Source: a virus
Virus record (IMG/VR): IMGVR_UViG_3300045988_095676
Span: 26,969-90,968 of that record
Length of the DNA: 64,000 nt
Direction: 5' to 3' (one strand)
Shown here: in pieces, positions 2,283 through 62,643 of the stretch
How the letters are laid out: every line of letters starts with the position of its first letter
Numbering within the stretch: the stretch's first letter is position 1
Notes under the pieces: generated by a model
Databases searched by the model: none
Told to the model about the DNA's origin: nothing
What the model saw: only the letters and a program-made list of their open reading frames with translations
Translations under genes and position numbers: made by a program

Positions 2283-2355
2283 GGTCCTGTAGCTTAGTGG
2301 TGAAAGCAGGCGGCTCATAACCGCAAGATCGTGGGTTCAAATCCCTCTGGGACCA
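2283..2355 (+). tRNA. tRNA-Met/Ile2 (anticodon CAT), no encoded CCA
   Basis: Manual fold: acceptor GGTCCTG/TGGGACC, D-arm GCTT..AAGC, anticodon stem GGCGG/CCGCA with loop CTCATAA, T-loop TTCAAAT. 1:72 is paired, so not a bacterial initiator. Confidence 0.7.
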
Positions 2356-2356
2356 C

Positions 2357-2427
2357 TGTCCAATGGTGTAGTGGTAGCACAACAGATTTTGGTTCTGTTA
2401 GCGGAGGTTCGAATCCTCCTTGGATAA
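2357..2427 (+). tRNA. tRNA-Gln (anticodon TTG), no encoded CCA
   Basis: Acceptor TGTCCAA/TTGGATA, anticodon stem ACAGA/TCTGT with loop TTTTGGT, T-arm GGAGG-TTCGAAT-CCTCC. Confidence 0.65.
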
Positions 2428-2497
2428 CGGTACATATTTTGTGTAAAGTGTTAATTATCTCGGTGTTTGCGGTGTGTGAACATAGCAAACATTAAAT

Positions 2498-2569
2498 AGC
2501 CTGGTAGTTAAACGGATATAACAAAAGTTTCCTAAACTTTAGTTCCGGGTTCGACTCCCGGTTGGGCTA
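2498..2569 (+). tRNA. tRNA-Arg (anticodon CCT), no encoded CCA
   Basis: 72-nt cloverleaf: D-stem GTTA/TAAC, anticodon stem AAAGT/ACTTT with loop TTCCTAA, T-arm CCGGG-TTCGACT-CCCGG. Acceptor stem has three G-U wobbles. Confidence 0.55.
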
Positions 2570-2572
2570 CAT

Positions 2573-2644
2573 GGCTTGTTGGATGAGTGGTTTAGTCAGG
2601 GATCTGCAAAATCTCGTAGGGCGGTTCGATTCCGCCACAAGCCT
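2573..2644 (+). tRNA. tRNA-Cys (anticodon GCA), no encoded CCA
   Basis: Perfect 7-bp acceptor GGCTTGT/ACAAGCC, anticodon stem GGGAT/ATCTC with loop CTGCAAA, T-arm GGCGG-TTCGATT-CCGCC. Confidence 0.65.
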
Positions 2645-2660
2645 CTAAAAAAGTAAGACA

Positions 2661-5633: not shown

Positions 5634-6056
5634 ATGAAGATAAACTTTTTAAGCAGTAAAACCTATGTAGGTTCTAAGACAAAAGAAGCTAAAATCAGAA
5701 AGCTTTCTATTAGCAAAGATCGGATTATGACCATATCGGTGGACAATCTGAAATGGATGGGTATCGAAGATGCGGTTATTATTGGTATGGAAGAAGGAGC
5801 TGAGTTTAAAGGGGTGTTGGATTCTAATTTGTATATAGCTCCTTCTAAGGTAGAAGACGAGAGATCGTTTTTATTAAATAAACAAGGTGAGAAATATAGA
5901 CGTATTTACCTCCGTGATGTACTGTCTTCGTTAGGTTGGGATATCGGTGATAATCAGTATGCGGTTTATGATATTGTGAAGGTTAAGGACGAAGATGGTG
6001 TGTTCTGCCTGGTTCCGAGAGAGATTAAGAAAAGTAAGTTTGAGAAAGGAGAATGA
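5634..6056 (+). CDS. hypothetical protein (140 aa)
   Basis: ORF track; its stop abuts the start of the next gene. Confidence 0.45.
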   Translation: MKINFLSSKTYVGSKTKEAKIRKLSISKDRIMTISVDNLKWMGIEDAVIIGMEEGAEFKGVLDSNLYIAPSKVEDERSFLLNKQGEKYRRIYLRDVLSSLGWDIGDNQYAVYDIVKVKDEDGVFCLVPREIKKSKFEKGE

Positions 6057-6057
6057 T

Positions 6058-6936
6058 ATGGTACAAGATATTGATATAAAATCCAAACGAATATTATTGT
6101 TTGATTTTGATGGAACGCTTATAGAAACCGCTTCTGGGAATACGTTCGCTACAGACTTGACAGATATGAGGATTAAGATGGATGTGGTGAATAAGGCTCT
6201 TGACCTCATGCAGGAGAACGGTGTTAAGGTATTTGCTATCGTAAGCAATCAAGGAGGAGTAGAAGCTGGGTTTGTTTCTGGAGCTGATATTGAAGCTAAG
6301 ATAGAATACGTACTGAGGTCCGTACATGATCTGGCGGTAAAGAGAGGTATAAGAGGCGTCCTATATGAAAAAAGGTTGTGTTATTCAAATGACGAACAAA
6401 ATCCGATGAGGAAGCCTAATACGGGCATGATTGATGATATTCTTATGAAGTGTAAAGACACGGTAATGCGCGGTATGAACTTCAGTCAACTTAAGGGATG
6501 TTCGTTGATGGTCGGGGACGCCAGTGGTCTGCCAGGGCAGTTCTCTGATTCGGATAAGGTATGTGCCTATAATTCCGGTATTAACTATATGGATATTACT
6601 ACATTTTTGGATAAAGATCTTGATTTAGAATATGTATTGTCCAAAGAACATACAAGTGAAGGAATAGTTATTCTAAACAACGATCATATATATATCCTTG
6701 AAAATCCATATGGGGTTGGTCTTAATATAAAAATCACTTTAAAAGATTTTTATAAGATTGAAACCGATGATGGAAAAACTGCAACCGTAGATGATGTGCT
6801 GAATATAAGGATTGATAAAGATCAGAATTTTAATTCATATAGTGATGTTATAAAAATAGAAACATTAAAAGACGGTAGTATCAAATATACAAGCTTATAT
6901 CATGAAAGTAAAGAAAACAGCGATAGTTTATCATAA
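6058..6936 (+). CDS. HAD-superfamily (subfamily IIIA) phosphatase, polynucleotide 3'-phosphatase / GmhB-like
   Basis: Motif I LLFDFDGTLIET (DxDGT), motif II IVSNQGG, motif III RKPNTGM, motif IV MVGDASG..SDSD. Start moved to the ATG at 6058 immediately after the upstream stop. Confidence 0.7.
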   Translation: MVQDIDIKSKRILLFDFDGTLIETASGNTFATDLTDMRIKMDVVNKALDLMQENGVKVFAIVSNQGGVEAGFVSGADIEAKIEYVLRSVHDLAVKRGIRGVLYEKRLCYSNDEQNPMRKPNTGMIDDILMKCKDTVMRGMNFSQLKGCSLMVGDASGLPGQFSDSDKVCAYNSGINYMDITTFLDKDLDLEYVLSKEHTSEGIVILNNDHIYILENPYGVGLNIKITLKDFYKIETDDGKTATVDDVLNIRIDKDQNFNSYSDVIKIETLKDGSIKYTSLYHESKENSDSLS

Positions 6937-7858
6937 ATCGGATTTAGATGGCGTTGTATCGGCAGCCATCGCAACCATGTACGAAAACAGTAAAAACAAG
7001 GATGTTGTTTATATCCCGTATTCGTATGAAGATGATGTTAAGAAAGTTGTTGACCAAGTACGTGACTTAGATGTTGTTTATGTTCTTGACGTGTCTTTTG
7101 GAGCCGATTCTAAAACTGTTTTCAAAAAGTGGCTTGATGAAGGGAAGAGCCTGATGTGGATAGATCACCACAAGGGAATTATTGAGGACAGTAAGACATG
7201 GGGGTTCGTAGTTCCAGGGTTGAGGAGGGTCGGTGTCGGTGCGTGCGCTCTGGCTTCGGACCTGCTTATGGGGAAGGTGCCGGCGATCGTCCGATGCCTG
7301 TCAGACTACGATGTGTGGAATAAAGAATCTGGCTTAGGCTGGGATACGGTAGTAGCTGTCCAGTATGCCTTGAGATCAAAAATAAGACTCAATGTATTGA
7401 TTGCATTGTCGTATTTATATGATCACTTTAAAGAAAACATGAAAGACAATGAAATTGATCTTATTTTTTATGATCTTGCTAAAGAAGGACGTGCTATAAT
7501 TAATTACATGGCTTGTAAAAACGAAGATGAGGTAAGTAGGTACTCGTTCGAAGCTTACGTCGACGAGGTTAAGGTTATGGCTATGAATACCGCTGAATTT
7601 AGCTCTAAGGTATTTGATTCTCTTACACCGGACTGGTTAGACGGTAGAAAAATTAAAGCCCTGATGCCATTTTGTATCATGCCATGTGGAAAAGTTAGGT
7701 TCTCTCTTTACGAATGCGTAGAAGACAGCGTAGATTGCTGTGAGGTAAGTAAGAGATTCGGTGGTGGAGGACATGCTGGTGCTGCTGGATTCGTTATAGA
7801 CGTATCAAGTGACCAGTTTAAGGACTTCCTTGAAAGTAAAAAACTTTTATCGAAATGA
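6902..7858 (+). CDS. DHH/DHHA1-family phosphoesterase (NrnA-like nanoRNase / pAp phosphatase type)
   Basis: HKSDLDGVVSA (DxD motif), VLDVSFG, WIDHHKG (DHH motif), C-terminal GGGGHAGAAGF (DHHA1 GGGH motif). Confidence 0.7.
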   Translation: MKVKKTAIVYHKSDLDGVVSAAIATMYENSKNKDVVYIPYSYEDDVKKVVDQVRDLDVVYVLDVSFGADSKTVFKKWLDEGKSLMWIDHHKGIIEDSKTWGFVVPGLRRVGVGACALASDLLMGKVPAIVRCLSDYDVWNKESGLGWDTVVAVQYALRSKIRLNVLIALSYLYDHFKENMKDNEIDLIFYDLAKEGRAIINYMACKNEDEVSRYSFEAYVDEVKVMAMNTAEFSSKVFDSLTPDWLDGRKIKALMPFCIMPCGKVRFSLYECVEDSVDCCEVSKRFGGGGHAGAAGFVIDVSSDQFKDFLESKKLLSK

Positions 7859-9398: not shown

Positions 9399-9983
9399 CA
9401 AGGCACGGAGAGCGCCGTTAAGCTCTCCAAAGGTTTGACGCGTACCGTTAAACGCGTCTGTACGCCGTTGTCAGTGGGTGCACGTCCCGCGTATGCTTTA
9501 GACTGAAGCTGACAAAACAGAGAGTTATTTTACATATTGGAGATAGATATACCGGTATCGAGGCCGTTGGCAATTAAAAATACGGTATTGCTGCATGAAC
9601 TGCACTAAATAAGTGTGGTTTATGTTAGGTATGTTAGTACAGTTTGGAAAACATACCGTTGTACGCGGTTTATCTCCAGACCGAAACGTGTCTTACTTGC
9701 CTACACGTAAAATAGGACAAGGCTGTAGATTAAATTACAGGGTATAAACATGTAGCCTACCATGTAGGAGCGTGATATATCAAAGCGCAAGGACACAATC
9801 GCCTTTATTTGTGGCTAAGTTGTGTAGCAGACGGAAAATATAATAACAACATAGTACGAGCCTGTACGCAAGAACTACGTACTAATTACGGGCTGTTGGT
9901 TGTAGCATAAAATCTCTATAGGATAGGAATGCGTGTCCGGTTCGATTCCGGAGCAACCTCTAAATTATAAATAATATAATAGC
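9399..9983 (+). ncRNA. 585-bp ORF-free, locally GC-rich structured region ending in a tRNA-like T-arm/acceptor minihelix (9897-9960)
   Basis: No ORF of 60 aa or more on either strand. 3' end has TCCGG-TTCGATT-CCGGA (T-loop identical to the tRNA-Cys T-loop) plus a 6-bp acceptor-like pairing GGTTGT/GCAACC. Only about 32 nt lie between the acceptor and the T-arm, so it is not a canonical tRNA. Confidence 0.4.
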
Positions 9984-10488: not shown

Positions 10489-10581
10489 ATTGGTCTAAAA
10501 CGAAACTAAAATATGAGAGTTTGGATACAATGCCGGTATTTTGTCTATATCATGTCGTTGAAATTGGTCTAAAACGAAACT
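10489..10581 (+). repeat. 19-bp direct repeat ATTGGTCTAAAACGAAACT, two copies 74 bp apart
   Basis: Identical copies at 10489-10507 and 10563-10581 in an 850-bp ORF-free region. Confidence 0.8.
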
Positions 10582-11086: not shown

Positions 11087-11200
11087 GGGGGAGAGGGAGG
11101 GCACTCCCTACCAACAAAATTCAATAGATAAGCGTTTTAAAACAGTGTTCTGTAGATCATTTCCACAAAATTCAATATGATAAGGGTTTAAAACAGCATT
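11087..11200 (+). repeat. imperfect ~36-bp direct repeat ACAAAATTCAATAgATAAGcGTTTtAAAACAG, two copies
   Basis: ccaacaaaattcaatagataagcgttttaaaacagtgtt versus ccacaaaattcaatatgataagggtttaaaacagcatt. Preceded by the G-rich block GGAGAGGGGGAGAGGGAGGG. Confidence 0.7.
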
Positions 11201-11285
11201 ATATAGGTTCCTTCCAACAGATTAAGGGTTGAGGACTGCATTATGTGAGTATTTTTTTTTAAGCGGGATGTTTAACAATTAAAAT

Positions 11286-11555
11286 ATGGATGGTATGAAC
11301 GTATATGACTTTGCGCCTGACTTAGATTTGAGTAAGGAGGTAGAAGGTTCTATTTTCGGGGTAAAAGGAATAGAAGGCAGTGATGGAATAGTATATGCTA
11401 AGGTAGTTAGCTGTGTAGACGTTAAGGATTACAGTTGTGATAGGTGTATTTTTTATGATTGTTATAAGGATAAATGTTTATTATCGCGTAGTGATAGTTG
11501 TATAGATGGAGATTGGATTTGTAGGTACGAACAGGCTGCCATAGAGGGGGAGTAG
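11286..11555 (+). CDS. small Cys-rich protein (89 aa)
   Basis: ORF track; the conserved 19-mer TGTTTAACAATTAAAATAT ends at the ATG; eight Cys suggest metal binding. Confidence 0.45.
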   Translation: MDGMNVYDFAPDLDLSKEVEGSIFGVKGIEGSDGIVYAKVVSCVDVKDYSCDRCIFYDCYKDKCLLSRSDSCIDGDWICRYEQAAIEGE

Positions 11556-11663
11556 GCGGCGCCTTGGGCTAAGGCCTGCGGTTGTAGGTGGAACGTAGGT
11601 CGGAGCAGAGCCGGAACAGTTTATTGTGGAACTAAAAAAAAATAAAAAGGAGGAGATAGCGAT

Positions 11664-11744
11664 ATGAAAAAGGCATTTAAGATATTTTCTATTATGTTTG
11701 TCATAGAAATAGTGCTGATAGCTATTTTAGATGCTATGGCGTAA
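11664..11744 (+). CDS. 26-aa hydrophobic peptide MKKAFKIFSIMFVIEIVLIAILDAMA (leader or membrane peptide candidate)
   Basis: Strong SD AAAAGGAGG 7 nt upstream of the ATG; its stop codon abuts the 5' end of tRNA-like element A. Confidence 0.35.
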   Translation: MKKAFKIFSIMFVIEIVLIAILDAMA

Positions 11745-11869
11745 GTGAGAAAAATTTCTTCATTAATTTTCTTATGCTTTAGACAGAATGCTCCCATCTG
11801 CGAAGATCGGAGCATTTGCTTTATGGGATTCATGGTGCAGCAAGTCGGTTCGATTCCGGCGATCTCACA
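11745..11869 (+). ncRNA. tRNA-like structured element A (paralogue of element B)
   Basis: 5' GTGAGAA pairs with 3' ATCTCAC. T-arm TCGG-TTCGATT-CCGG. Internal 8-bp hairpin AATGCTCC..GGAGCATT enclosing an ATCT-GCGA-AGAT GNRA tetraloop. The tail ATCTCACAcAACAtTAAAA is shared with element B. Ends 22 nt before the next ATG. Confidence 0.45.
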
Positions 11870-11891
11870 CAACATTAAAATAGGGAAGAAC

Positions 11892-12296
11892 ATGTTAAAA
11901 GAAGAATTTGAAGAACTGATTAAAAGGGAGGTAAACGAAAATCAGTATAAAAACATAGAAACGGCATACGAGGCTTTGCCGGAGTATATGGATAAGATGT
12001 ATTTAGCAAGTGCTATTTCAAATGATATTGGGAAAGCTATTAATGTCTTATCGTTTTTAGGATCGCATATAAGCGAGTTAATGGGTTCGATAATAATCGA
12101 AAGGCAAAAGGTGGAATCATGTGCCTATGATTTAATAAACAAATCGCATGAGGAGGATGACTTGAAAGCAAGAGAGATTGCCGTGCGATTAATAGGAGAG
12201 AGGGAAACAGTGGCATACACAGTAAAAGAAGGGCTGCCATTGTGGGAACAAGATAAAAAGTTTATAATAGAATTAATAAAGGAGGATAGAAAATGA
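11892..12296 (+). CDS. hypothetical protein (134 aa)
   Basis: Start moved to the ATG at 11892. The track's GTG-start extension from 11745 would read through structured element A. Confidence 0.45.
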   Translation: MLKEEFEELIKREVNENQYKNIETAYEALPEYMDKMYLASAISNDIGKAINVLSFLGSHISELMGSIIIERQKVESCAYDLINKSHEEDDLKAREIAVRLIGERETVAYTVKEGLPLWEQDKKFIIELIKEDRK

Positions 12297-12622
12297 AAGA
12301 CGGTATTGTATTGCATCCAGAGCATGGGTTGAATCCATCCATAGAACTATGCATAGTATGCGGTGAAGAGATGGGGATTGCTTTATTAGGGAATAACATC
12401 AAAGGGCAGGCGCCGCATCATATATGCACGGGAGAAATATGTGACAATTGCAAAAAGATAATAGATGACGGAGGTTGTTTTATTATCGAAGTTGAGGATG
12501 GATCAGATCAAAAGAATCCGTATCGTACAGGGAGATATTGCGCGATAAAGAAAGAAGCAGCAAAGAAAATACTTGGACAGGAGCATAGTATTGTGTACAT
12601 GGAAAAGTCTGCGTACAGTTAA
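12293..12622 (+). CDS. hypothetical Cys-rich protein (109 aa)
   Basis: SD AAGGAGG before the ATG; CxxC..C..C pattern. Confidence 0.45.
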   Translation: MKDGIVLHPEHGLNPSIELCIVCGEEMGIALLGNNIKGQAPHHICTGEICDNCKKIIDDGGCFIIEVEDGSDQKNPYRTGRYCAIKKEAAKKILGQEHSIVYMEKSAYS

Positions 12623-12648
12623 ATAATACCACAAAAATAAAGAAAGAT

Positions 12649-12963
12649 ATGTTTGCAAAAGAAGAGCGATTATTCATATGGAAAAAGGTATATGAGATGA
12701 TTGATAGGTTAGAGGATGGGGAATACATATGTGTTGCGTTAAGAAATGTAGTGTTTATGTATTTCAAAACACATAAAAATATCTATGAGTTTCGTTCAGA
12801 CGAAATGGTGAGAATATATTTCCCGGAATTGGAAGAGAAGATAAGTATGGCCACAGAACCAGAGGAAACAAGAACGTTTTATGGGTGGTTTGGTTGTCTT
12901 AGTCCAGAAACGAAGGAGGTAAGGCTGAATATTGTGAAAGATATTATAAAAGAATTAGAATAG
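12649..12963 (+). CDS. hypothetical protein (104 aa)
   Basis: ORF track. Confidence 0.4.
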   Translation: MFAKEERLFIWKKVYEMIDRLEDGEYICVALRNVVFMYFKTHKNIYEFRSDEMVRIYFPELEEKISMATEPEETRTFYGWFGCLSPETKEVRLNIVKDIIKELE

Positions 12964-13022
12964 TATTTTTGTTAATCTATTTTATTCATCAAATTAAGTT
13001 TTGGGTTTTGGCATGTCGGTTC

Positions 13023-13118
13023 GTGAGGATAGGCATGCCTATTTCTGCATCATAGAGGGGATGACGCGGCGTGCCGGTGCGTATGTGCCGGTCCTGGTTC
13101 GATTCTGGGCATCTCACA
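13023..13118 (+). ncRNA. tRNA-like structured element B (paralogue of element A)
   Basis: 5' GTGAGGA pairs with 3' ATCTCAC. D-arm-like hairpin GATAGG-CATG-CCTATT. T-arm CCTGG-TTCGATT-CTGGG. Tail ATCTCACAaAACAaTAAAA. About 96 nt. Ends 20 nt before the next ATG. Confidence 0.45.
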
Positions 13119-13138
13119 AACAATAAAACAAAAAAGTT

Positions 13139-13372
13139 ATGAGAATATATAAGAATGATATTATAAAGGCGTCAGCAATAAGCACCGGAGCCGACAGAGG
13201 CGTGTTGCTGTGTTCAATAACAGATTCAGGCTTTACGTCTATAGCGGGCGTAATATCGGCTGTTAAGGATAGGTTACCAAACGAAGATCACAAGAAGATG
13301 GTTTTTGAAATCTTGAATGATACGAAAAAAGAGTACGGAAGATATAATAATTGCGGAACAAAAGTATTGTAA
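13139..13372 (+). CDS. hypothetical protein (77 aa)
   Basis: ORF track; lies immediately downstream of element B. Confidence 0.4.
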   Translation: MRIYKNDIIKASAISTGADRGVLLCSITDSGFTSIAGVISAVKDRLPNEDHKKMVFEILNDTKKEYGRYNNCGTKVL

Positions 13373-13491
13373 TAAAGAGTAGAAAACAATATGTTTATGT
13401 AATATTAGTTTTTTCATTTTTATTGAAAGGAGCGCCGGCCTGTGAAGGTATGCGCTCTTTGTATTTGTATAATGCATAAAACAATAATAAT

Positions 13492-13746
13492 ATGACAGAG
13501 AATAGTATATACGTAAATATCGTACCTGTAAAGAATGGTATGAAACGTGTTGTGGTATCATATTACCATTATTCACGCAAGGAGAAAGATCGCATGAGTT
13601 CCCAAACGGATTACGTTTGGGAAACAAAGAATGAAGAAATGTTTAAATACTTTGAGGCCAGGAGGACAAAAGTATTTTATAGTCAGATTCGTGCCATGTG
13701 TAGATTCTATGGCAAGAAAAATGTACGTAAATACAAAAAGTTATGA
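13492..13746 (+). CDS. hypothetical protein (84 aa)
   Basis: ORF track; ATGA overlap with the next gene. Confidence 0.4.
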   Translation: MTENSIYVNIVPVKNGMKRVVVSYYHYSRKEKDRMSSQTDYVWETKNEEMFKYFEARRTKVFYSQIRAMCRFYGKKNVRKYKKL

Positions 13747-14552
13747 TATTAAAAACGACAACCAACGAGTTTTGTTTCATTAACGTAAGTTTCTACGAAA
13801 CAATAGCAGATCCTCGTCATTTCTTTGAACAGGATTATGAAGAGATGCCAGAATATGAGGAGGAATCGGATTTTGATTTTGATTCTTATTACAATAAGTT
13901 TATTCCTTTTGTACAGGAATGGGCGAATGAGGTAAGTGAACGCCTTTACGGATATGGCGTGAATAGTATAAAGGTAACATCGGTCGGATATCCGAAAGAA
14001 TATAATTATGGTACTGATTGGATGAACGTAGAGGTAGAGTTTTGTGATGAATGGAGGCAAAAGATGTTATCTAACATTAGTAAGATTGTCAATGATGATA
14101 AATGCAAGAAGTATGCGGAGACTAATTACCGGTCGGTATCAGGATACATCTTTTTAGGACCTGAAGATTTAAAGGAATTTGAAAAGGAAATAATAGAAAG
14201 AAAGTCGGATTCCGGATATGATGTAACAATATTATTAAATATGTATCTAACTTTGGCTTTTGTAAAAGAATTTGGATTTAAAGCCGGAGAAGCATGGAGT
14301 GAAATAACAGAATATGCTTACGGATGTTTATCGTATTCCGATTTTGCAACAACAGAGATGCTTATACCGGAAGGTTCGGAGCATTTATTCAAAGACATTT
14401 ACACGGCAAAGGCCGACGAATTATATCATCATGTCCTGGATAAATTCGGATGGGCGTGGCGTGATCCGAAATATAAGTCAGAAACAGAATTATGCGCGAT
14501 GCTAAAGTGGGCAAAAGAAAAAGGCTTGACCATTGAAGAGTTAAGTATTTAA
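13743..14552 (+). CDS. hypothetical acidic protein (269 aa)
   Basis: ORF track; no motif recognised. Confidence 0.45.
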   Translation: MILKTTTNEFCFINVSFYETIADPRHFFEQDYEEMPEYEEESDFDFDSYYNKFIPFVQEWANEVSERLYGYGVNSIKVTSVGYPKEYNYGTDWMNVEVEFCDEWRQKMLSNISKIVNDDKCKKYAETNYRSVSGYIFLGPEDLKEFEKEIIERKSDSGYDVTILLNMYLTLAFVKEFGFKAGEAWSEITEYAYGCLSYSDFATTEMLIPEGSEHLFKDIYTAKADELYHHVLDKFGWAWRDPKYKSETELCAMLKWAKEKGLTIEELSI

Positions 14553-14579
14553 TTGTTAAACATAAGGCAGTAGTGGTGC

Positions 14580-14864
14580 GTGAGTATAGGTGCTGCCGTT
14601 AAAATATTTTATAAGATGAAAAAAGAAGAGATTCAAACTATTTTATACACAATCAAAGAAGGAGACAGTATTAAAATCAAAGTACAAGACAAAAGTGAAG
14701 AGATAAGACTGCGGGATCATGTAAGAAGAGTACAGAAATACGGATACAGGTTTTGTTTGTCTCATTTACATGATGGAATTTTCTATCTGGAGAAGTTGAA
14801 AGAAGGGGATAAGGATAAATACTATAGAGTAATAAACAGAGGAAATGGAAAGACCGGAGTATAA
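14580..14864 (+). CDS. hypothetical protein (94 aa)
   Basis: ORF track. Confidence 0.4.
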   Translation: MSIGAAVKIFYKMKKEEIQTILYTIKEGDSIKIKVQDKSEEIRLRDHVRRVQKYGYRFCLSHLHDGIFYLEKLKEGDKDKYYRVINRGNGKTGV

Positions 14865-16228: not shown

Positions 16229-16616
16229 ATTAGATAAAGTGGTTAATATCCTAAAAGAAAAAGGATTTGTAGTATATAGAAAGGGCGGGAAGGAGCCAGG
16301 TGTGTTTTACGCTAAAGAAGGTGACAGCCGGATAGGATTCGTTTATCCCAACAACGGATATATATATGATAGAATAAAAATGTGGTCTTTTTCAAGGATA
16401 TATAAACCACATAAGAAAACCGGGTCTTCGTGTTTAATGAGCGTCAGCGACGAATTTACGATAGAGAATGCGATTAAGAACATAGAGGATAGACTGTGGG
16501 TGAATTATATAAAAGATGGTAACAGAAAACGACCAGAAGAATATAAAAATATAAGAGAATTTGTTGGTAGCTTCACTAAATTCTACAGCTCTGTAGAATT
16601 AGTTGAGGTTAAGTAG
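16206..16616 (+). CDS. hypothetical protein (136 aa)
   Basis: ORF track; followed by a terminator. Confidence 0.45.
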   Translation: MKMNVENKLDKVVNILKEKGFVVYRKGGKEPGVFYAKEGDSRIGFVYPNNGYIYDRIKMWSFSRIYKPHKKTGSSCLMSVSDEFTIENAIKNIEDRLWVNYIKDGNRKRPEEYKNIREFVGSFTKFYSSVELVEVK

Positions 16617-16635
16617 TTTTCCATGTAAGTTAGTT

Positions 16636-16672
16636 ACCGGCACTGGTCTGCGAAGATAGGCGCCGTTTTTTT
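16636..16672 (+). terminator. rho-independent terminator
   Basis: CCGGCAC..GGCGCCG hairpin with a TCT-GCGA-AGA GNRA loop, then TTTTTTT. Confidence 0.65.
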
Positions 16673-16693
16673 ATTCAAGGAAGGAGGACAAAG

Positions 16694-16945
16694 ATGGGAA
16701 AAAGAGACAAGGAGATACCTTATGAGGTAGTCATACAGGAAAGAAAAAGAGTGGATTTATATGGTAACGTAGTGTATTATATCTATTGGTTTGATAAATA
16801 TGGGTACAATATCACAAACGAATGGAAATTCTGGAGCAAGGGTCCGAAAAAGAAATACGATAGAGTTAATCGTTATCTAACGGATAGTTGGCTGAAGGAA
16901 TACTGTGGGAATAACAATTTAAAGATAAGGAGAATAAAGGAATGA
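16694..16945 (+). CDS. hypothetical protein (83 aa)
   Basis: Strong SD GGAAGGAGG before the ATG. Confidence 0.5.
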   Translation: MGKRDKEIPYEVVIQERKRVDLYGNVVYYIYWFDKYGYNITNEWKFWSKGPKKKYDRVNRYLTDSWLKEYCGNNNLKIRRIKE

Positions 16946-26251: not shown

Positions 26252-26863
26252 ATGAACAATTTTATAATAGATACTCCAGATAATTTCTGGCAAATAAGAT
26301 GGCTTGACAAATATATGGAAGGTCACAAGGGGTTCATAGCTGGTGGATGTTTTAAGAATATCCTTTCCGGAGAAAAAGTAAAAGATATTGATATTTTCTT
26401 TGAAAGCGAAGACGATTTTCAGGAAGCTGTTGATTTGTTCAATGATGAAAAACATCAGAAAGAAGGATGGAAATTTAAGTACAGGAATGAGAAGGTATGT
26501 GCGTTCCATAAAGAGGGAGAAAGGGTATGGATAGAGTTCATAGAGTCAGAGTTCGGAAAGCCTGAAGAGATTCTCAGGAGCTTCGACTTTACTGTGGCAA
26601 AAATGGCTTACTACAAGGAGCCTAAATACGAAGAAGAGGAAGATGATTATTTTCCATTCTCATCTGCAAGTATAGTAGCATACGAGTACAAACTACTCTA
26701 CCATGAGAAATTCTTTGAACATCTTCATATGAAGAGGCTGGTCATTGATGAAAATATTCCTTTTCCAGTAAGCACATGGGAACGCTCATATCGGTATAAA
26801 GGATATGGTTACAATATGTGCCGGGAGACAAAGAAAAACTTCTACAGGCTCTTAAAGGTGTAA
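26252..26863 (+). CDS. minimal nucleotidyltransferase resembling the tRNA CCA-adding enzyme head domain
   Basis: FIAGGCFKNILSGEKVKDIDIFF matches GGxVRDxLLG..DxD (Pol-beta NTase motif A); RSFDFTVAKMA matches the RDFTINA motif B of class II CCA enzymes. Protein is 203 aa. Confidence 0.5.
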   Translation: MNNFIIDTPDNFWQIRWLDKYMEGHKGFIAGGCFKNILSGEKVKDIDIFFESEDDFQEAVDLFNDEKHQKEGWKFKYRNEKVCAFHKEGERVWIEFIESEFGKPEEILRSFDFTVAKMAYYKEPKYEEEEDDYFPFSSASIVAYEYKLLYHEKFFEHLHMKRLVIDENIPFPVSTWERSYRYKGYGYNMCRETKKNFYRLLKV

Positions 26864-43309: not shown

Positions 43310-45010
43310 ATGACAACAATTATGTACGTGTCAGCCATCTTAGCTGTAGTGATTATTTTGACAATCATCGGAGTCTTATCAAGGTATCGTAGATGTAAGC
43401 CTAATCAGGTCTTGGTCGTTTACGGTAAGACAGGTGGGGAAAAGAAGTCGGCAAAATTATATCATGGTGGAGCGGCATTTGTCTTGCCTATTATTCAAAG
43501 CTATGATGTTTTGTCTATGGAGCCTATGCAAATAGATTGTAGGCTTACCGGTGCTTTGTCATCTCAGAATATTAGAGTAGATGTGCCTACAACTATTACA
43601 GTAGCTATCAGTACAAATCCTGAAATCATGCAAAATGCAGCAGAAAGACTTTTGGGGATGGATACCGAATCTACTGAAAATCTTATTACAGACATCGTTT
43701 ACGGTCAGATGCGTTTGATTATTGCCGAAATGACAATCGAAAAACTTAATTCTGATAGGGATGAGTTTTTGGATAAGGCAAGAAAAAACATTGATAACGA
43801 ACTTAATAAATTGGGTCTTTATCTTTTGAACATTAACATCAGTGACATCAGAGATGAAGCCGGCTACATCATGAATCTTGGTAAAGAGGCTGAAAGCAAG
43901 GCTCTGAACGAAGCACAGGCTAATATCGAAGAACAGGAAAAGCTGGGTGCTATTAAGATTGCTGTACAACAGAAGGAAAAAGAAACGGCTGTAGCTAATA
44001 CCCAAAAAGAGCAAGAGATTCAAATTGCCTATACTGAAAAAGAAAAAGAAACGGTAGTAGCTGAAACAAAGAAAGAAAAAGAAGTAGCTTTGGCTTTAAC
44101 CGATAAAGAAAAACAGATCGGTGTAGCTCAAGCCGATAGAGATAGGGCTGCGGCTATAGCAAAGACTTTGGCTGACAAGGAATCAGCGATTGCAAGATCT
44201 AAGGCGGAACTTGAAGTAAACAAAGCTGAAGCCGAAAGAATGGAAGAAGTTGGAAAGAATAAAGCTGAAGCTGACAAACAAGCAGCTATAGCAATACAAG
44301 ACTCTGAAGCTCAGATTAAGAAAGCTGAGGCTGAGAAAAATGCTTCTGTAGGCTACAACAATGCCCAGAAAGAGGTTGCTGTATCAGAATCAGAATTGCA
44401 GGTTATCAAAGCTCAATCAGAAAAGAAAGCCGGAGAAGAGAAAGTTAAATCGGAAGCGGCTGTGAAAACGGCAAAAGAGCTTGCTGATAAAGAAGTGGAA
44501 GAAGCTAAAGCTAAGAAGGTTCAAGCTGCGCTTAAAGCTGAAAAGATTGTGCCGGCTGAAATTCAGAAGCAGGAGGCTATGTTGCAAGCTGATGCCGAGG
44601 CCGAGAAGATCAAACGCCGGGCCGATGCTGAAGCAGCAGCACATTTGGCAAAAGCAGAGGCGGAAGCAAAAGCTATTCAGATGAAGCTGGAAGCGGAAGC
44701 CGAAGGTAAGAAAAAGTCGTTGATGGCAGAAGCCGACGGATTTAAGGCTATGGTGGAAGCAGCAGAATCCAATCCTCAGATCGCCATCCAGTACAAGATG
44801 GTTAATCAGTGGAAAGAAATTGCCGGAGAACAGGTTAAGGCATTTGAGCACATTAACCTCGGAAATATCACGGTATTTGACGGCGGTCAGAACAGTACCG
44901 GTAATTTCCTTAACAATGTTGTTAAGACCGTCGCTCCGGCATTGGGAGTCATTGATCAGCTTCCGATTGCAGATACTTTAAAGAAGCTAAAAGGAGATGA
45001 CAAAAAATAA
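43310..45010 (+). CDS. flotillin-like SPFH/Band-7 protein (FloT/YqiK type)
   Basis: N-terminal TM helix; PNQVLVVYGKTGG...AAFVLPIIQSYDVLSMEP...IRVDV SPFH core; long Ala/Glu/Lys-rich coiled coil (AEAEKIKRRADAEAAAHLAKAEAEAK) typical of the flotillin C-terminus. Confidence 0.7.
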   Translation: MTTIMYVSAILAVVIILTIIGVLSRYRRCKPNQVLVVYGKTGGEKKSAKLYHGGAAFVLPIIQSYDVLSMEPMQIDCRLTGALSSQNIRVDVPTTITVAISTNPEIMQNAAERLLGMDTESTENLITDIVYGQMRLIIAEMTIEKLNSDRDEFLDKARKNIDNELNKLGLYLLNINISDIRDEAGYIMNLGKEAESKALNEAQANIEEQEKLGAIKIAVQQKEKETAVANTQKEQEIQIAYTEKEKETVVAETKKEKEVALALTDKEKQIGVAQADRDRAAAIAKTLADKESAIARSKAELEVNKAEAERMEEVGKNKAEADKQAAIAIQDSEAQIKKAEAEKNASVGYNNAQKEVAVSESELQVIKAQSEKKAGEEKVKSEAAVKTAKELADKEVEEAKAKKVQAALKAEKIVPAEIQKQEAMLQADAEAEKIKRRADAEAAAHLAKAEAEAKAIQMKLEAEAEGKKKSLMAEADGFKAMVEAAESNPQIAIQYKMVNQWKEIAGEQVKAFEHINLGNITVFDGGQNSTGNFLNNVVKTVAPALGVIDQLPIADTLKKLKGDDKK

Positions 45011-55525: not shown

Positions 55526-56003
55526 CTACATATCCATTTTGACCATTTTTAAATAAATAGCTATTAGCTTTATTAAAAGCGTAATTTTCATTACTGGTAT
55601 CATATTCAAGATACGCATTCTGATTTTCACGCCCCCAATAATCCTTTTTAACGGTCTTCATATAAGAACTATTTTGTGCAAATACATTGTCTACTCTTCC
55701 ATCCTTACCCCAACTAAATGTGCCAATATATTCGGTGGCTATAACAAAACACACTTTATCTACAAGAGCTATTCCATTGCATAGATCATTGGAATATCCT
55801 TTATTAGACCAATTTTCTTTTGTATATAATCCTCCATCTACATGTTGGATGTATATGCCTTTATTGATTATAAGCGAGGGATTTACCCCCATCCCTATTT
55901 GAAATCTTCGTCTCATGATTTTTGTTTGCAAGATAGCAATAATTGACAACATAAAAGAAACCGGTTCTCTATCATCTCTGACTGAGAACCGGTAAGAAAA
56001 CAA
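55482..56003 (-). CDS. hypothetical N/G/Y-rich protein (173 aa), structural or fibre-like composition
   Basis: ORF track; first gene downstream of the giant minus-strand gene. Confidence 0.4.
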   Translation of the reverse strand: MFSYRFSVRDDREPVSFMLSIIAILQTKIMRRRFQIGMGVNPSLIINKGIYIQHVDGGLYTKENWSNKGYSNDLCNGIALVDKVCFVIATEYIGTFSWGKDGRVDNVFAQNSSYMKTVKKDYWGRENQNAYLEYDTSNENYAFNKANSYLFKNGQNGYVGGAGEFFFDIIVCE

Positions 56004-62613: not shown

Positions 62614-62643
62614 AAGCCATCTAACTTCTCAGTCTGATGGCTT
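62614..62643 (-). terminator. hairpin terminator for the upstream minus-strand gene
   Basis: AAGCCATC..GATGGCTT stem, followed on the minus strand by TATTTTC. Confidence 0.4.

Follow-up and report, generated by a model that had tools for sequence, protein, structure and literature searches.

Elements A and B are composite RNA elements located between the genes of a co-directional array of small phage genes, in a window of 64,000 nucleotides (the whole stretch of DNA that was analysed). They are non-coding and they are not tRNA genes, and their sequence features are real and go beyond chance. The two elements have the same layout: a hairpin capped by a GNRA tetraloop, a minihelix derived from a tRNA, an A-rich single-stranded leader and the ATG of the next gene. 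The hairpin, which is very stable, consists of 8–9 bp, a 1x1 internal loop, 4 bp and the tetraloop. In the minihelix, a putative acceptor-like helix of 5–7 bp, hereafter P1, would stack directly on a canonical 5-bp T-stem which carries the T-loop TTCGATT, while the D arm and the anticodon arm are gone or substituted. This layout takes the place of the cloverleaf-like anatomy drawn in a previous sequence-only reading (GTGAG as acceptor strand, then a D-arm-like hairpin, with inserts separating the D-like arm from the T-arm), which was not upheld on 40–42 variants.

When a covariance model made from B is used for the search, A is matched at 39.5 bits (E ~5e-5); the two are paralogues, and the homology spans the hairpin, P1, the T-arm and the tail. 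The 23-mer GGTTCGATTCYGGSNATCTCACA, common to both, has two exact occurrences in the 64-kb window, for zero expected. The paralogy proposed in the sequence-only reading is therefore correct, but its count of two elements is not, since a third T-arm (9936-9952), that of element C, had been overlooked. The order is always C-A-B in the more than 114 viral contigs that have the elements. A and B are both conserved in over 100 contigs of human-gut phages that are related to phage csAssE-Sib.

Structures of the elements

Table 1. Positions of the elements, of their parts and of related features in the window.
Feature	Position	Strand	Basis or remark
C, structured RNA of ~530 nt; its 3' end is the third tRNA-derived module	9429-9959	+	predicted pairs and covariation
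A, conserved AU-rich 5' segment	11745-11785	+	nearly invariant, 40 distinct variants; holds GTGAGA and the 12-mer TATGCTTTAGAC
A, long GNRA hairpin GAATGCTCC-C-ATCT-GCGA-AGAT-C-GGAGCATTT	11786-11817	+	covariation
A, P1 5' strand (T)GGGATT	11824-11830	+	pairs with 11861-11867, adjoining the T-stem
A, T-arm GTCGG-TTCGATT-CCGGC	11844-11860	+	sequence
A, P1 3' strand GATCTC(A)	11861-11867	+	pairing with 11824-11830
A, single-stranded tail and leader (CACAACATTAAAA...) to ATG 11892	11868-11891	+	conserved up to ...TTAAAA
B, AT-rich 5' box (GTTAATCTATTTTATTCATCAAATTAAGTTTTGGGTTTT)	12971-13009	+	almost invariant in 42 variants, though non-coding
B, long GNRA hairpin GGCATGTC-G-GTTC-GTGA-GGAT-A-GGCATGCC	13010-13039	+	12-bp, built like the GCGA hairpin of A
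B, P1 5' strand GGGATG	13058-13063	+	pairs with 13110-13115
B, optional hairpin GCCGGTGC-GTAT-GTGCCGGT	13073-13092	+	7/8 pairs vary yet stay paired (98.8% of cells)
B, T-arm CCTGG-TTCGATT-CTGGG	13093-13109	+	sequence; 99.5% of cells paired
B, P1 3' strand CATCTC (13110-13115), then tail ACAAACAATAAAAC and leader to ATG 13139	13110-13138	+	sequence, conservation
Genuine phage tRNA-Cys(GCA), comparator	2573-2645	+	T-arm 2620-2636, T-loop as in A and B, CCA not encoded
GNRA hairpin of the same design, GGTGTTTGC-G-GTGT-GTGA-ACAT-A-GCAAACATT	2462-2493	+	ends 4 nt before tRNA-Arg
Related intergenic GNRA hairpin without T-arm	13427-13460	+	upstream of ATG 13492
Similar T-arm-less hairpin elements	14566-14597; 16637-16666	+	model search

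The helix of A capped by GCGA, which the sequence-only reading had described, is real. Three of its pairs show compensatory double changes (AU/GC n=13, UA/CG n=3, CG/AU n=1), and none of 500 shuffles matched this covariation. The long hairpin of B is paired in 99.8% of cells over 42 variants, and its five varying pairs all change via G.U intermediates. Two parts of B that had been given tRNA-like roles belong to this hairpin: the GTGA of the supposed acceptor strand (13023-13026) is its tetraloop, and the supposed D-arm-like hairpin is its 3' half, which taken alone is broken in 8 variant cells versus 1 for the long hairpin. The boundaries first given for B, 13023-13118, were also wrong, as conservation and the covariance model both span about 12971-13131. 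In the covariance model search, the 5' box of B aligns with the 5' segment of A. The 12-mer TATGCTTTAGAC of A recurs at 9492-9503 (two occurrences in the window), and the GTGAG of A overlaps the stop codon of a 26-aa ORF, 11665-11745 (TAA-GTGAG; GCG-TGA-G in variants).

The pairing of GTGAGA with ATCTCAC, formerly taken as the acceptor stem of A, is disfavoured. It is broken in variants L036 (GTAAT) and L062 (3' strand AATTCC), both of which leave P1 essentially intact; the sole loss is the outermost U:A pair in L062, where all six core P1 pairs are kept despite three changes in the 3' strand. P1 of A is paired in 99.6% of variant cells. The isolated A module folds with P1, and the B model aligns the GGGATT of A with the GGGATG of B. 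P1 competes in A with a local hairpin and with the GTGAGA/ATCTCAC stem, and on longer sequence RNAalifold and RNAfold prefer both over P1. An extended rod in which TATGCTTTAGAC pairs with TTTATGGGAT shows one-sided changes only and conflicts with P1.

In B, P1 is present in the MFE folds of the isolated module and of 13010-13117. Variant L018 carries a compensatory G:C to A:U change in this helix, and L009 and L025 turn a G.U pair into A:U. Another closing helix of B, GTTTTGGG with CTCA-C-AAAC, is compatible with the variants, but it leaves a gap of 3 nt to the T-stem; with one pair broken by L018, and not being general across the elements, it was set aside. The duplicated GTGCCGG noticed earlier in B is present and forms the optional hairpin, which is cleanly deleted in variants L041 and L072.

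The predicted fold of C has 149 pairs, 23 of which show compensatory changes among 38 sequences. Its T-arm (TCCGG-TTCGATT-CCGGA) is followed by the 3' strand GCAACC(T) at 9953-9959, and the candidate 5' partners of this strand are GGTTGT (9898-9903), which would form a local P1, or AGGTT (9429-9433), which would form a long-range closing helix. RNAalifold prefers the latter, and the conservation of C starts at the 5' strand of the outer helix.

Two further families of elements that end with a T-arm, D and E, were observed in other viral contigs. All five families allow a short helix to be drawn right beside the T-stem (A GGGATT/GATCTC, B GGGATG/CATCTC, C GGTTGT/GCAACC, D GGGACG/CGTCCC, E GAAATG/CATTTC), and each module folded in isolation has it in its MFE structure. 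It is kept in all of the rare variants L062, L018, L009 and L025. No other helix agrees as well as P1 with the variants and with the full set of paralogues; P1 is short, and its shuffle p-values are weak, from 0.04 to 0.47 per family, with a Fisher combination of ~0.02. P1 and the T-stem add up to 11–12 bp in A, B and C, the full tRNA length of 12 bp being attained in A alone. The stretch between P1 and the T-arm (13–34 nt) is unrelated in sequence and length between families.

The T-arms of A and B, with a loop identical to that of tRNA-Cys, are present as reported in the sequence-only reading. These two T-arms and that of C are canonical, with a 5-bp stem, the loop T54-T55-C56-R57-A58-N-Y and the pair G53:C61. 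In more than 190 copies, the variation of the T-arm is confined to compensated stem pairs and to positions 57 (G/A), 59 and 60 of the loop, which are degenerate positions in the tRNA consensus GGTTCRANYCC. Outside canonical tRNA genes, this motif reads GGTTCGATTCC in A and C, and GGTTCGATTCT in B, where the closing pair in the stem is G.U. The T-stem of A varies as UG/CG/UA and CG/UG and is paired in 100% of cells, and the variants of that of B include TCTGG/CCAGG and CCCGG/CCGGG. In A, B and C, the changes in stems are compensatory or occur via G.U, and are specific to the + strand as RNA. Chimeras and deletions have also been observed among the variants (L096, L047, L013, L041, L072), their junctions falling within the T-loop that the elements share or within repeats.

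Relation to tRNAs and to known RNA families

ARAGORN identifies only four true tRNAs in the whole window (2283-2645) and no tRNA for A or B. With Rfam 15, no family besides the true tRNAs reaches the gathering threshold in the window or at the D and E loci. The earlier remark that A and B have neither a standard cloverleaf nor an encoded CCA is in line with these searches. The suggestion that they are unusual long-arm tRNAs fails: they have no anticodon arm, and the tRNA-clan models of Rfam, including tRNA-Sec, do not match A or B even at E<=10. In the tmRNA mode of ARAGORN, no tmRNA was found with a lowered threshold, and the tmRNA models of Rfam match the T-arm only, over 15–17 nt, at ~10 bits compared to gathering thresholds of 47–84 bits.

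It is extremely unlikely that the elements are functional aberrant tRNAs (long-arm, intron-containing or suppressor) or attP copies of the 3' end of a host tRNA, and this reading is effectively refuted already. When introns are allowed and the threshold is lowered, ARAGORN can be forced to call B a "tRNA-Val with intron" and A a "tRNA-Ser with intron", but the boundaries of these calls are ad hoc, and the Rfam tRNA, tRNA-Sec and tmRNA models match nothing beyond the T-arm at E<=10. Phage attP sites often carry tRNA 3' ends. However, a scan of 185,579 species genomes revealed no tRNA with such a 3' end, and three copies in one phage do not fit an attP site. The scan gave one true copy, on a 3.9-kb contig that is binned to a Veillonella MAG but probably comes from the phage; the other 22 matches are chance matches, which lie outside ARAGORN tRNA calls and, by eye, look like coding sequence.

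We also considered whether A and B come from one given phage tRNA and rejected this, as nothing beyond the T-arm is significantly similar. GGGAT/ATCTC is identical to the anticodon stem of tRNA-Cys, but the match is not collinear and was taken as a coincidence.

Genomic context and possible functions

The real phage tRNAs, none of which (0/4) encodes CCA, sit in the same kind of position as the elements: tRNA-Cys, for example, ends 15 nt ahead of ATG 2661. The combination of an AT-rich box, a GNRA hairpin and an A-rich tail recurs without a T-arm in at least three more intergenic regions, and model R1 scores three such T-arm-less elements at 27, 19.6 and 15.9 bits. The T-arm minihelix is thus an optional module on a commoner intergenic hairpin element, and is dispensable for whatever the hairpin does.

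The similar 3' tails noted earlier in A and B, each leading to an ATG (11892 and 13139), are seen in the sequence. The concern raised with them, that the tail might be a generic box upstream of many genes, proved unfounded: it has no other close copy, and A-rich near-matches are enriched 2-fold only. In every cassette type the start codon lies 20–32 nt past the element, and this spacing is conserved. The elements are near-invariant (40 A variants, 42 B variants) while the neighbouring cassettes swap. Indeed, the gene content differs directly after the A and B tails: cassette types diverge past the ...TTAAAA of A, and phage csAssE-Sib has an extra gene inserted directly after the B tail.

This change of gene content right past the tails is what would be expected if the elements were decaying tRNA pseudogenes or DNA-level junctions, that is, remnants of duplicated tRNAs at cassette boundaries that provide at most short recombination homology. 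The chimeras and deletions, and the resemblance of the flanks of C to the phage tRNA-Cys (3' side, p=0.004; 5' side, p=0.04), point in the same direction. In T4-type phages, PeSL cassettes, which consist of a repeated early promoter and a terminator stem-loop, have been reported to flank mobile ORFs. In comparison, a repeated hairpin family and cassette indels at the tails are seen here, but a promoter consensus was not detected, promoter-like matches being as numerous as expected from shuffled sequences. We nevertheless consider this explanation quite unlikely, because near-invariant elements beside swapped cassettes indicate strong purifying selection, the compensatory and G.U-tolerant changes are specific to the + strand RNA, and the T-loop changes only where tRNAs tolerate it. 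The L096 chimera has a broken T-stem, and therefore looks like an accident rather than the function.

The GNRA hairpins might instead be intrinsic terminators or attenuators between early genes, the tRNA-like module being involved in read-through or antitermination. Three hairpins built in this way, 16637-16666 and, on the - strand, 55960-55993 and 62614-62643, are followed by T-runs, and U-rich stretches follow the hairpins of A and B. However, the U-rich stretches past A and B are interrupted and were not flagged by the terminator scan, the hairpin 2462-2493, between two tRNAs, has no U-tract, and we know of no antitermination system that uses a T-arm. Such control of transcription is very unlikely to be the role of the elements. 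Hairpins followed by U-rich runs could act as terminators, in which case the minihelix would lie in a leader and not between cistrons.

Sigma-70 promoters and intrinsic terminators were scanned for and are as numerous as in shuffled sequences, and no convincing sigma-70 promoter is found upstream of the elements. The lack of such a promoter argues against an uncleaved leader, in which the hairpin and the minihelix would stay on the downstream mRNA, either to stabilise its 5' end (RNase J and RNase Y being examples of what it would resist) or to enhance translation or offer a standby site for the ORF that starts 20–30 nt further on. Such a role would agree with the position of the element, always directly upstream of an ATG, with the A-rich leader and lack of a Shine-Dalgarno sequence of some downstream genes (the gene of B, 13492), and with the retention of the hairpin and the A-rich tail in the T-arm-less relatives. 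On the other hand, relatives with a strong Shine-Dalgarno sequence have the same element, and a T-loop exactly like that of tRNAs, with a stacked acceptor-like stem, is left unexplained. The uncleaved leader therefore seems unlikely.

A role in trans, as mimics of tRNAs, would account for the tRNA-like constraint on the T-loop. The minihelices, or larger RNAs, would be excised, perhaps CCA-tailed, and would accumulate as decoys or sponges. They would bind factors that recognise the acceptor/T-arm half of tRNA, for which the candidates are defence toxins directed at the 3' end or the acceptor stem of tRNAs, or else modification enzymes, EF-Tu and the ribosome; anticodon nucleases are excluded, since the elements have no mimic of an anticodon loop. 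Each genome has three copies, in a gene array that looks early; this is consistent with such a role, as is the stand-alone appearance of the ~530-nt C RNA, with its acceptor-like closing helix beside the T-arm. The phage also invests in tRNA biology, as four tRNAs and a protein with a polynucleotide kinase-phosphatase domain are encoded near the elements. But the elements have no CCA, and no CCA-adding enzyme was identified: the ORF 26252-26863, proposed in the sequence-only reading as an NTase of this type and a partner of the elements, has no match in Pfam and no sequence match in the PDB; its one match, to a PHROG nucleotidyltransferase family, is weak and partial. The tight and conserved coupling to the next start codon is better suited to a role in cis, and mimicry in trans is, in our view, an unlikely explanation.

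The explanation that we tentatively prefer, as a real possibility that falls short of being probable, is that A and B are processing signals cut by RNase P and RNase Z, like the t-elements of plant mitochondria. The minihelix would retain exactly the part of a tRNA that is recognised by RNase P, RNase Z and the CCA-adding enzyme, and it is proposed that, this part being retained, the tRNA-processing enzymes of the host would make two cuts in the polycistronic transcript, one at the 5' end of P1 and the other immediately past its 3' end. The upstream message would be left ending in a protective GNRA hairpin, the downstream message would begin 20–30 nt before its ATG, and a small RNA of ~45–60 nt would be released. 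The real phage tRNAs would have to cause the same cuts where they are in the same transcripts. The context agrees with this reading in several points: the place of tRNA-Cys 15 nt ahead of an ATG, the lack of an encoded CCA in all four phage tRNAs, the like-built hairpin next to tRNA-Arg and the resemblance of the flanks of C to tRNA-Cys. The absence from the elements of a 3' CCA or RCCA, which would aid bacterial RNase P, counts against cleavage, and so do the shortness and weak shuffle statistics of P1, the helices that compete with it in A and C, the 11–12 bp of P1 and T-stem, the hairpin relatives that have no T-arm and the possibility that several hairpins are terminators. Among the options listed in the sequence-only reading, a tRNA-like structure marking transcript ends comes close to this explanation. 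The literature search found nothing on phage csAssE-Sib or on t-element-like signals in phages.

A broader, speculative scheme, which we regard as highly improbable, is that duplicated tRNA genes have become, in this gut phage lineage, a modular punctuation system made of RNA. The modules, each a GNRA hairpin with a tRNA-derived minihelix, would define the ends of mRNAs and those of the ~530-nt non-coding C RNA, with a topology like that of tmRNA, and the excised minihelices would serve in trans as decoys of the acceptor/T-arm type for tRNA-targeting host factors. If true, this would be the first counterpart in a bacterial virus of the logic of MALAT1-mascRNA and t-elements, and a new class of phage tRNA mimics.

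If RNase P and RNase Z do cut the elements, phages would use degenerate copies of tRNAs, and not just real tRNAs, to shape their transcripts. This would affect the annotation of "tRNA-like" matches and tRNA fragments in phages, as well as the predicted operon structure and gene dosage in early regions, and might possibly help in designing compact signals for the processing of synthetic operons in hosts of the Firmicutes type. Relative to Rfam, the large and well-supported structured RNA C, the phage-wide hairpin family and the families D and E are new. Even if the elements are merely conserved junctions, their likeness to tRNA consists of a 17-nt T-arm and a short stem, and the hand-drawn cloverleaf should not be propagated.

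Comparison with known systems

The tRNA-like structures of plant RNA viruses are at the 3' terminus of the genomic RNA, have a CCA end and are aminoacylated. A and B, on the contrary, are internal to the genome of a dsDNA phage, with ORFs after them; they lack CCA and match none of the Rfam models of viral tRNA-like structures. Phages also produce RNAs that are not tRNAs and yet have tRNA-like termini and need tRNA-processing enzymes: the stable RNAs C and D of T4 (species 1 and 2), P1 C4 and P4 CI. To our knowledge, none of them is related in sequence to the elements. The T4 RNAs are stand-alone and located inside a tRNA cluster, whereas the elements described here are directly upstream of ORFs.

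In tmRNA, the 5' and 3' ends form a tRNA-like domain with a 3' CCA and a G3:U70 pair, and the molecule also includes a tag frame and pseudoknots. The elements resemble it in that they combine a putative acceptor-like helix with a T-arm, while normal D and anticodon arms are missing, and the 5' and 3' ends of the large structured RNA C may similarly pair beside the T-arm. They differ from tmRNA in their scores (~10 bits, no ARAGORN call) and in having no identified tag ORF, no CCA and no conserved G3:U70.

The 3' end of MALAT1 and MEN-beta consists of a stabilising triple helix followed by the tRNA-like mascRNA. mascRNA is eukaryotic and forms a full cloverleaf, with no ORF downstream. The order of the parts is the same in A and B, where a stable, putatively protective structure lies directly upstream of a tRNA-like element, so that a cut by RNase P would generate a protected 3' end and one by RNase Z would free a small tRNA-like RNA, but this structure is a GNRA hairpin and not a triple helix, there is no full cloverleaf, and an ORF follows.

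YrlA, a bacterial Y-RNA-like non-coding RNA that is encoded by some phages, has a module which mimics the T-arm, D-arm and acceptor stem of tRNA (PMC4201824). Unlike YrlA, the phage elements have no match in Rfam and no identified Ro-binding stem.

The t-elements of plant mitochondria were found by screening for GGTTCRANYCC outside canonical tRNAs, and the ends of mRNAs fall at the ends of these elements (Forner et al. 2007, PMC1920247). They have been proposed, and in part shown, to direct cuts by RNase P and RNase Z that make the 5' and 3' ends of mRNAs (PMC1920247). A, B and C share with t-elements the GGTTCRANYCC signature and a position beside protein-coding genes, in putative polycistronic transcripts, and they may also share a non-canonical cloverleaf around an acceptor-like stem and a T-arm (PMC1920247). 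The phage elements differ in that they belong to a bacterial virus and would encounter a ribozyme-type RNase P, in the smaller size of the modules (~45–60 nt), in the dedicated GNRA hairpin upstream and in the conserved three-member array.

T-arms, hairpins and paralogy of elements A and B

The letters which the sequence-only reading gave for elements A and B, two intergenic phage RNA elements with a tRNA-type T-arm, are borne out on reading 11500-13400. The 23-mer GGTTCGATTCYGGSNATCTCACA, common to both, occurs exactly twice in the window (0 expected). The tail is not a generic box upstream of many genes, an outcome that would have told against the first reading: its near-matches are A-rich and just 2-fold enriched. 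A stem-checked scan of the window reveals three T-arms on the + strand beyond the pattern-fitting tRNA T-arms, and none on the - strand; Those of A and B had been recognized, and the third, that of element C, overlooked.

Feature coordinates in the window (elements D and E lie in other viral contigs)
Feature	Position	Strand	Details
GNRA-design hairpin	2462-2493	+	between tRNA-Gln and tRNA-Arg, 4 nt upstream of tRNA-Arg
C RNA	9429-9959	+	conserved, non-coding, ~530 nt, T-arm at end
C T-arm	9936-9952	+	stem-checked scan
A hairpin	11786-11817	+	GAATGCTCC-C-ATCT-GCGA-AGAT-C-GGAGCATTT; design as in B hairpin
A T-arm	11844-11860	+	GTCGG-TTCGATT-CCGGC, then GATCTCACACAACATTAAAA, then ATG at 11892
B hairpin	13010-13039	+	GGCATGTC-G-GTTC-GTGA-GGAT-A-GGCATGCC; 99.8% paired over 42 variants
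B T-arm	13093-13109	+	CCTGG-TTCGATT-CTGGG, then CATCTCACAAACAATAAAAC, then ATG at 13139
GNRA-design hairpin, T-arm-less	13427-13460	+	match to R1 (search model for related hairpin elements) 13399-13492
GNRA-design hairpin, T-arm-less	14566-14597	+	R1 match 14540-14660
GNRA-design hairpin, T-arm-less	16637-16666	+	R1 match 16608-16703
GNRA-design hairpins	55960-55993, 62614-62643	-	
C P1-like pairing			GGTTGT/GCAACC
D P1-like pairing			GGGACG/CGTCCC; D is B-like, 27 other gut viral contigs
E P1-like pairing			GAAATG/CATTTC; E unrelated-looking, 22 environmental viral contigs

In the window, ARAGORN and Rfam recognize only tRNA-Met, Gln, Arg and Cys (2283-2645), none of which encodes CCA (0/4). 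In Rfam, A and B give no tRNA-clan match at E<=10 beyond a 17-nt T-arm match to a tmRNA model. "tRNAs" are called there only with ARAGORN intron mode and a lowered threshold, and these ad hoc calls were rejected. A rival explanation, on which these searches bear, is that the elements are aberrant tRNAs or attP sites. Two proteins encoded close to the tRNA cluster, one with a polynucleotide kinase 3'-phosphatase domain (5995-6936) and the other a DHH/DHHA1 phosphoesterase (6902-7858), suggest RNA or tRNA repair.

B was analysed on 42 distinct variants with RNAalifold and explicit pair counts. Five pairs of its hairpin vary, all via G.U intermediates. The GTGAGG of B, previously taken for a free 5' acceptor strand, contains the GNRA tetraloop of this hairpin (GTGA, 13023-13026), and the "D-like" hairpin is its 3' half and is broken in 8 cells. 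The A hairpin has true compensatory changes at three pairs, a covariation matched by 0/500 shuffles. A covariance model built from B matches A with 39.5 bits (E ~5e-5), aligning hairpin with hairpin, GGGAUU with GGGAUG, T-arm with T-arm and tail with tail. A and B are therefore paralogues, as had been proposed, with an architecture other than the proposed one.

The hairpins form a phage-wide family with one design (8-10-bp outer stem, 1x1 purine-rich internal loop, 4-bp stem usually starting with G.U, GNRA loop); the window has nine of them in the direction of transcription, compared to ~1.9 expected. Given these hairpins and the T-arm-less relatives, A and B belong to a larger set of intergenic hairpin elements and have gained a tRNA-derived minihelix. 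Some of the hairpins precede T-runs and may be transcription terminators; control linked to terminators is among the rival explanations.

The probable closing helix P1 and the conserved minihelix

Pairing is possible between the (G/C)ATCTC found 3' of the T-stem and a GGGAT(T/G) located upstream of the T-arm, by 13 nt in A and by 29 nt in B. The resulting helix, P1, has 6-7 bp and is stacked directly on the T-stem, like a tRNA acceptor stem; it is present in the MFE fold of every isolated module. The acceptor stem proposed earlier for A (GTGAG(A/G)A/ATCTCAC) is disfavoured by natural variants: L062, with three changed bases in the A 3' strand, acquires an A:C mismatch in that stem and retains all six core P1 pairs, and L036 carries GTAAT instead of GTGAG. 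In the P1 of B, L018 replaces a G:C pair by A:U, a compensatory change. These informative variant sequences favour P1. Shuffling gives p-values of 0.04-0.47 per family (~0.02 combined), and for a longer A sequence folding programs favour the earlier stem plus a local hairpin, not P1. On balance, P1 is likely to be real for A and B. A 26-aa hydrophobic ORF (MKKAFKIFSIMFVIEIVLIAILDAMA; 11665-11745) with a strong SD and synonymous changes in relatives has a stop codon which overlaps the GTGAG.

R57 (G/A), N59 and Y60 are the only T-loop positions that vary among the copies, and the T-stems evolve through compensated or G.U steps. The 3' flank of C, GCAA-CCTCTAAA, resembles that of the phage tRNA-Cys, ACAAGCCTCTAAA (p=0.004), as does its 5' side (p=0.04). 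Beyond the T-arm, neither A nor B is significantly similar to any of the phage's four tRNAs, and the segments from P1 to the T-arm are mutually unrelated among elements. Conservation thus lies in the acceptor/T minihelix and does not extend to D and anticodon arms.

Element C RNA, elements D and E, and relatives

Of the 149 pairs predicted for C RNA, 23 show compensatory changes (38 sequences). Rather than with a local P1, RNAalifold closes the whole RNA by AGGUU (9429-9433)/AACCU (9955-9959), and conservation starts exactly at the 5' strand of this helix; in this model the two ends may pair. No Rfam family matched C RNA, which may represent a large phage ncRNA of a new kind, similar to tmRNA in topology. 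The 12-mer TATGCTTTAGAC, near-invariant in relatives, is exact at 9492-9503, in the 5' part of C RNA, where it overlaps a weak promoter-like match (TTGTCA-18-TATGCT), and at 11773-11784 in element A.

Element D (L039 10896-11052, and 26 other viral contigs, L158-L183) comprises a GUCC-GUGA-GGAU hairpin like that of B and, after it, the minihelix GGGACG...T-arm...CGTCCC. Its middle hairpin has a 7-nt loop, CACAUAA, like a Met anticodon loop. The whole element is near-identical across contigs of 5-170 kb. Element E (L015 6956-7057, and 21 other viral contigs, L139-L157) looks like a miniature cloverleaf of ~62 nt, with GTTGG-TTCGATT-CCAAC-CATTTC at its end, and lies 3' of a stop codon. The sequence downstream differs among cassettes; in L015 it contains a gene that looks like a DNA methyltransferase, judging from a DPPY motif near its start.

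Phage csAssE-Sib, from human gut (151 kb, 94% identity), has the nearest deposited genome. Scanning viral contigs for exact patterns gave >114 loci, mostly in contigs of 80-170 kb, with 91 distinct sequence variants. The order C-A-B is kept throughout relatives, and the A-to-B spacing varies with gene content (504, ~853, 1066, ~1194, ~1249 or 2209 nt). Extra genes are inserted directly 3' of the A/B tails: L039 lacks gene 11892-12296, and csAssE-Sib has ~400 extra nt directly after B. Recombinants are occasional: in L096, the 5' part of A is fused to the 3' part of B within the T-loop; L013 lacks the 5' half of B, and L041 and L072 lack its GC-rich hairpin. Such loci would fit the rival explanation that the elements are neutral pseudogenes or recombination junctions; the compensatory changes in the stems speak against it.

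Among 185,579 species (one genome each), there is a single true copy; the 3.9-kb contig that carries it was assigned to a Veillonella MAG. The remaining 22 matches are due to chance (0/22 inside an ARAGORN tRNA call; coding sequence by eye). It follows that these elements were not copied from the 3' end of a host tRNA. The host may be of Firmicutes type, as AAGGAGG ribosome-binding sites are frequent.

A 19-nt exact direct repeat, ATTGGTCTAAAACGAAACT (10489-10507 and 10563-10581, spacing 74 nt), and a tandem duplication of 51 nt (11114-11215, 71% identity) sit in a gene-poor stretch, and it is near window 10466 that the linear csAssE-Sib record stops. The stretch is a candidate origin or terminus. 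The phage also encodes a 566-aa SPFH/Band-7 and flotillin domain protein (43310-45010).

Possible role and comparison with known systems

The elements are a real, conserved phage RNA family with a genuine tRNA-derived module, previously undescribed in that Rfam has no match. The initial observation was partly right: its cloverleaf-like reading was right in spirit and wrong in its details.

The genes around A and B are all on the + strand with short spacers, and true tRNAs are placed equivalently (15 nt separate the end of tRNA-Cys from ATG 2661). A leader left uncleaved, with a stabilising or translational role, is a rival explanation for this arrangement. The acceptor/T-arm parts kept here are those which RNase P, RNase Z and CCA-adding enzymes recognize; trans-acting decoy RNAs are a further rival. 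The CCA-adding-enzyme-like partner suggested earlier, ORF 26252-26863, finds no Pfam domain and no PDB sequence relative, its sole match being a partial one to a PHROG nucleotidyltransferase; its 203 aa fall short of the usual size of CCA-adding enzymes.

The elements are best classed as tRNA-like processing or mimicry elements. Going beyond the conserved minihelix, we tentatively infer, at somewhat less than even chances, that the elements are tRNA-mimic processing signals, whose minihelix would be read by tRNA-processing enzymes. This reading is favoured by the retained tRNA parts, the tRNA-equivalent position, the order of hairpin then module, and the precedent of t-elements. Known 3'-end-forming systems likewise place a tRNA-like module after a stable hairpin. 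Among described concepts, the nearest is that of the plant-mitochondrial t-elements, which were found via a GGTTCRANYCC screen and are linked to mRNA ends (PMC1920247); the phage elements carry the same signature.
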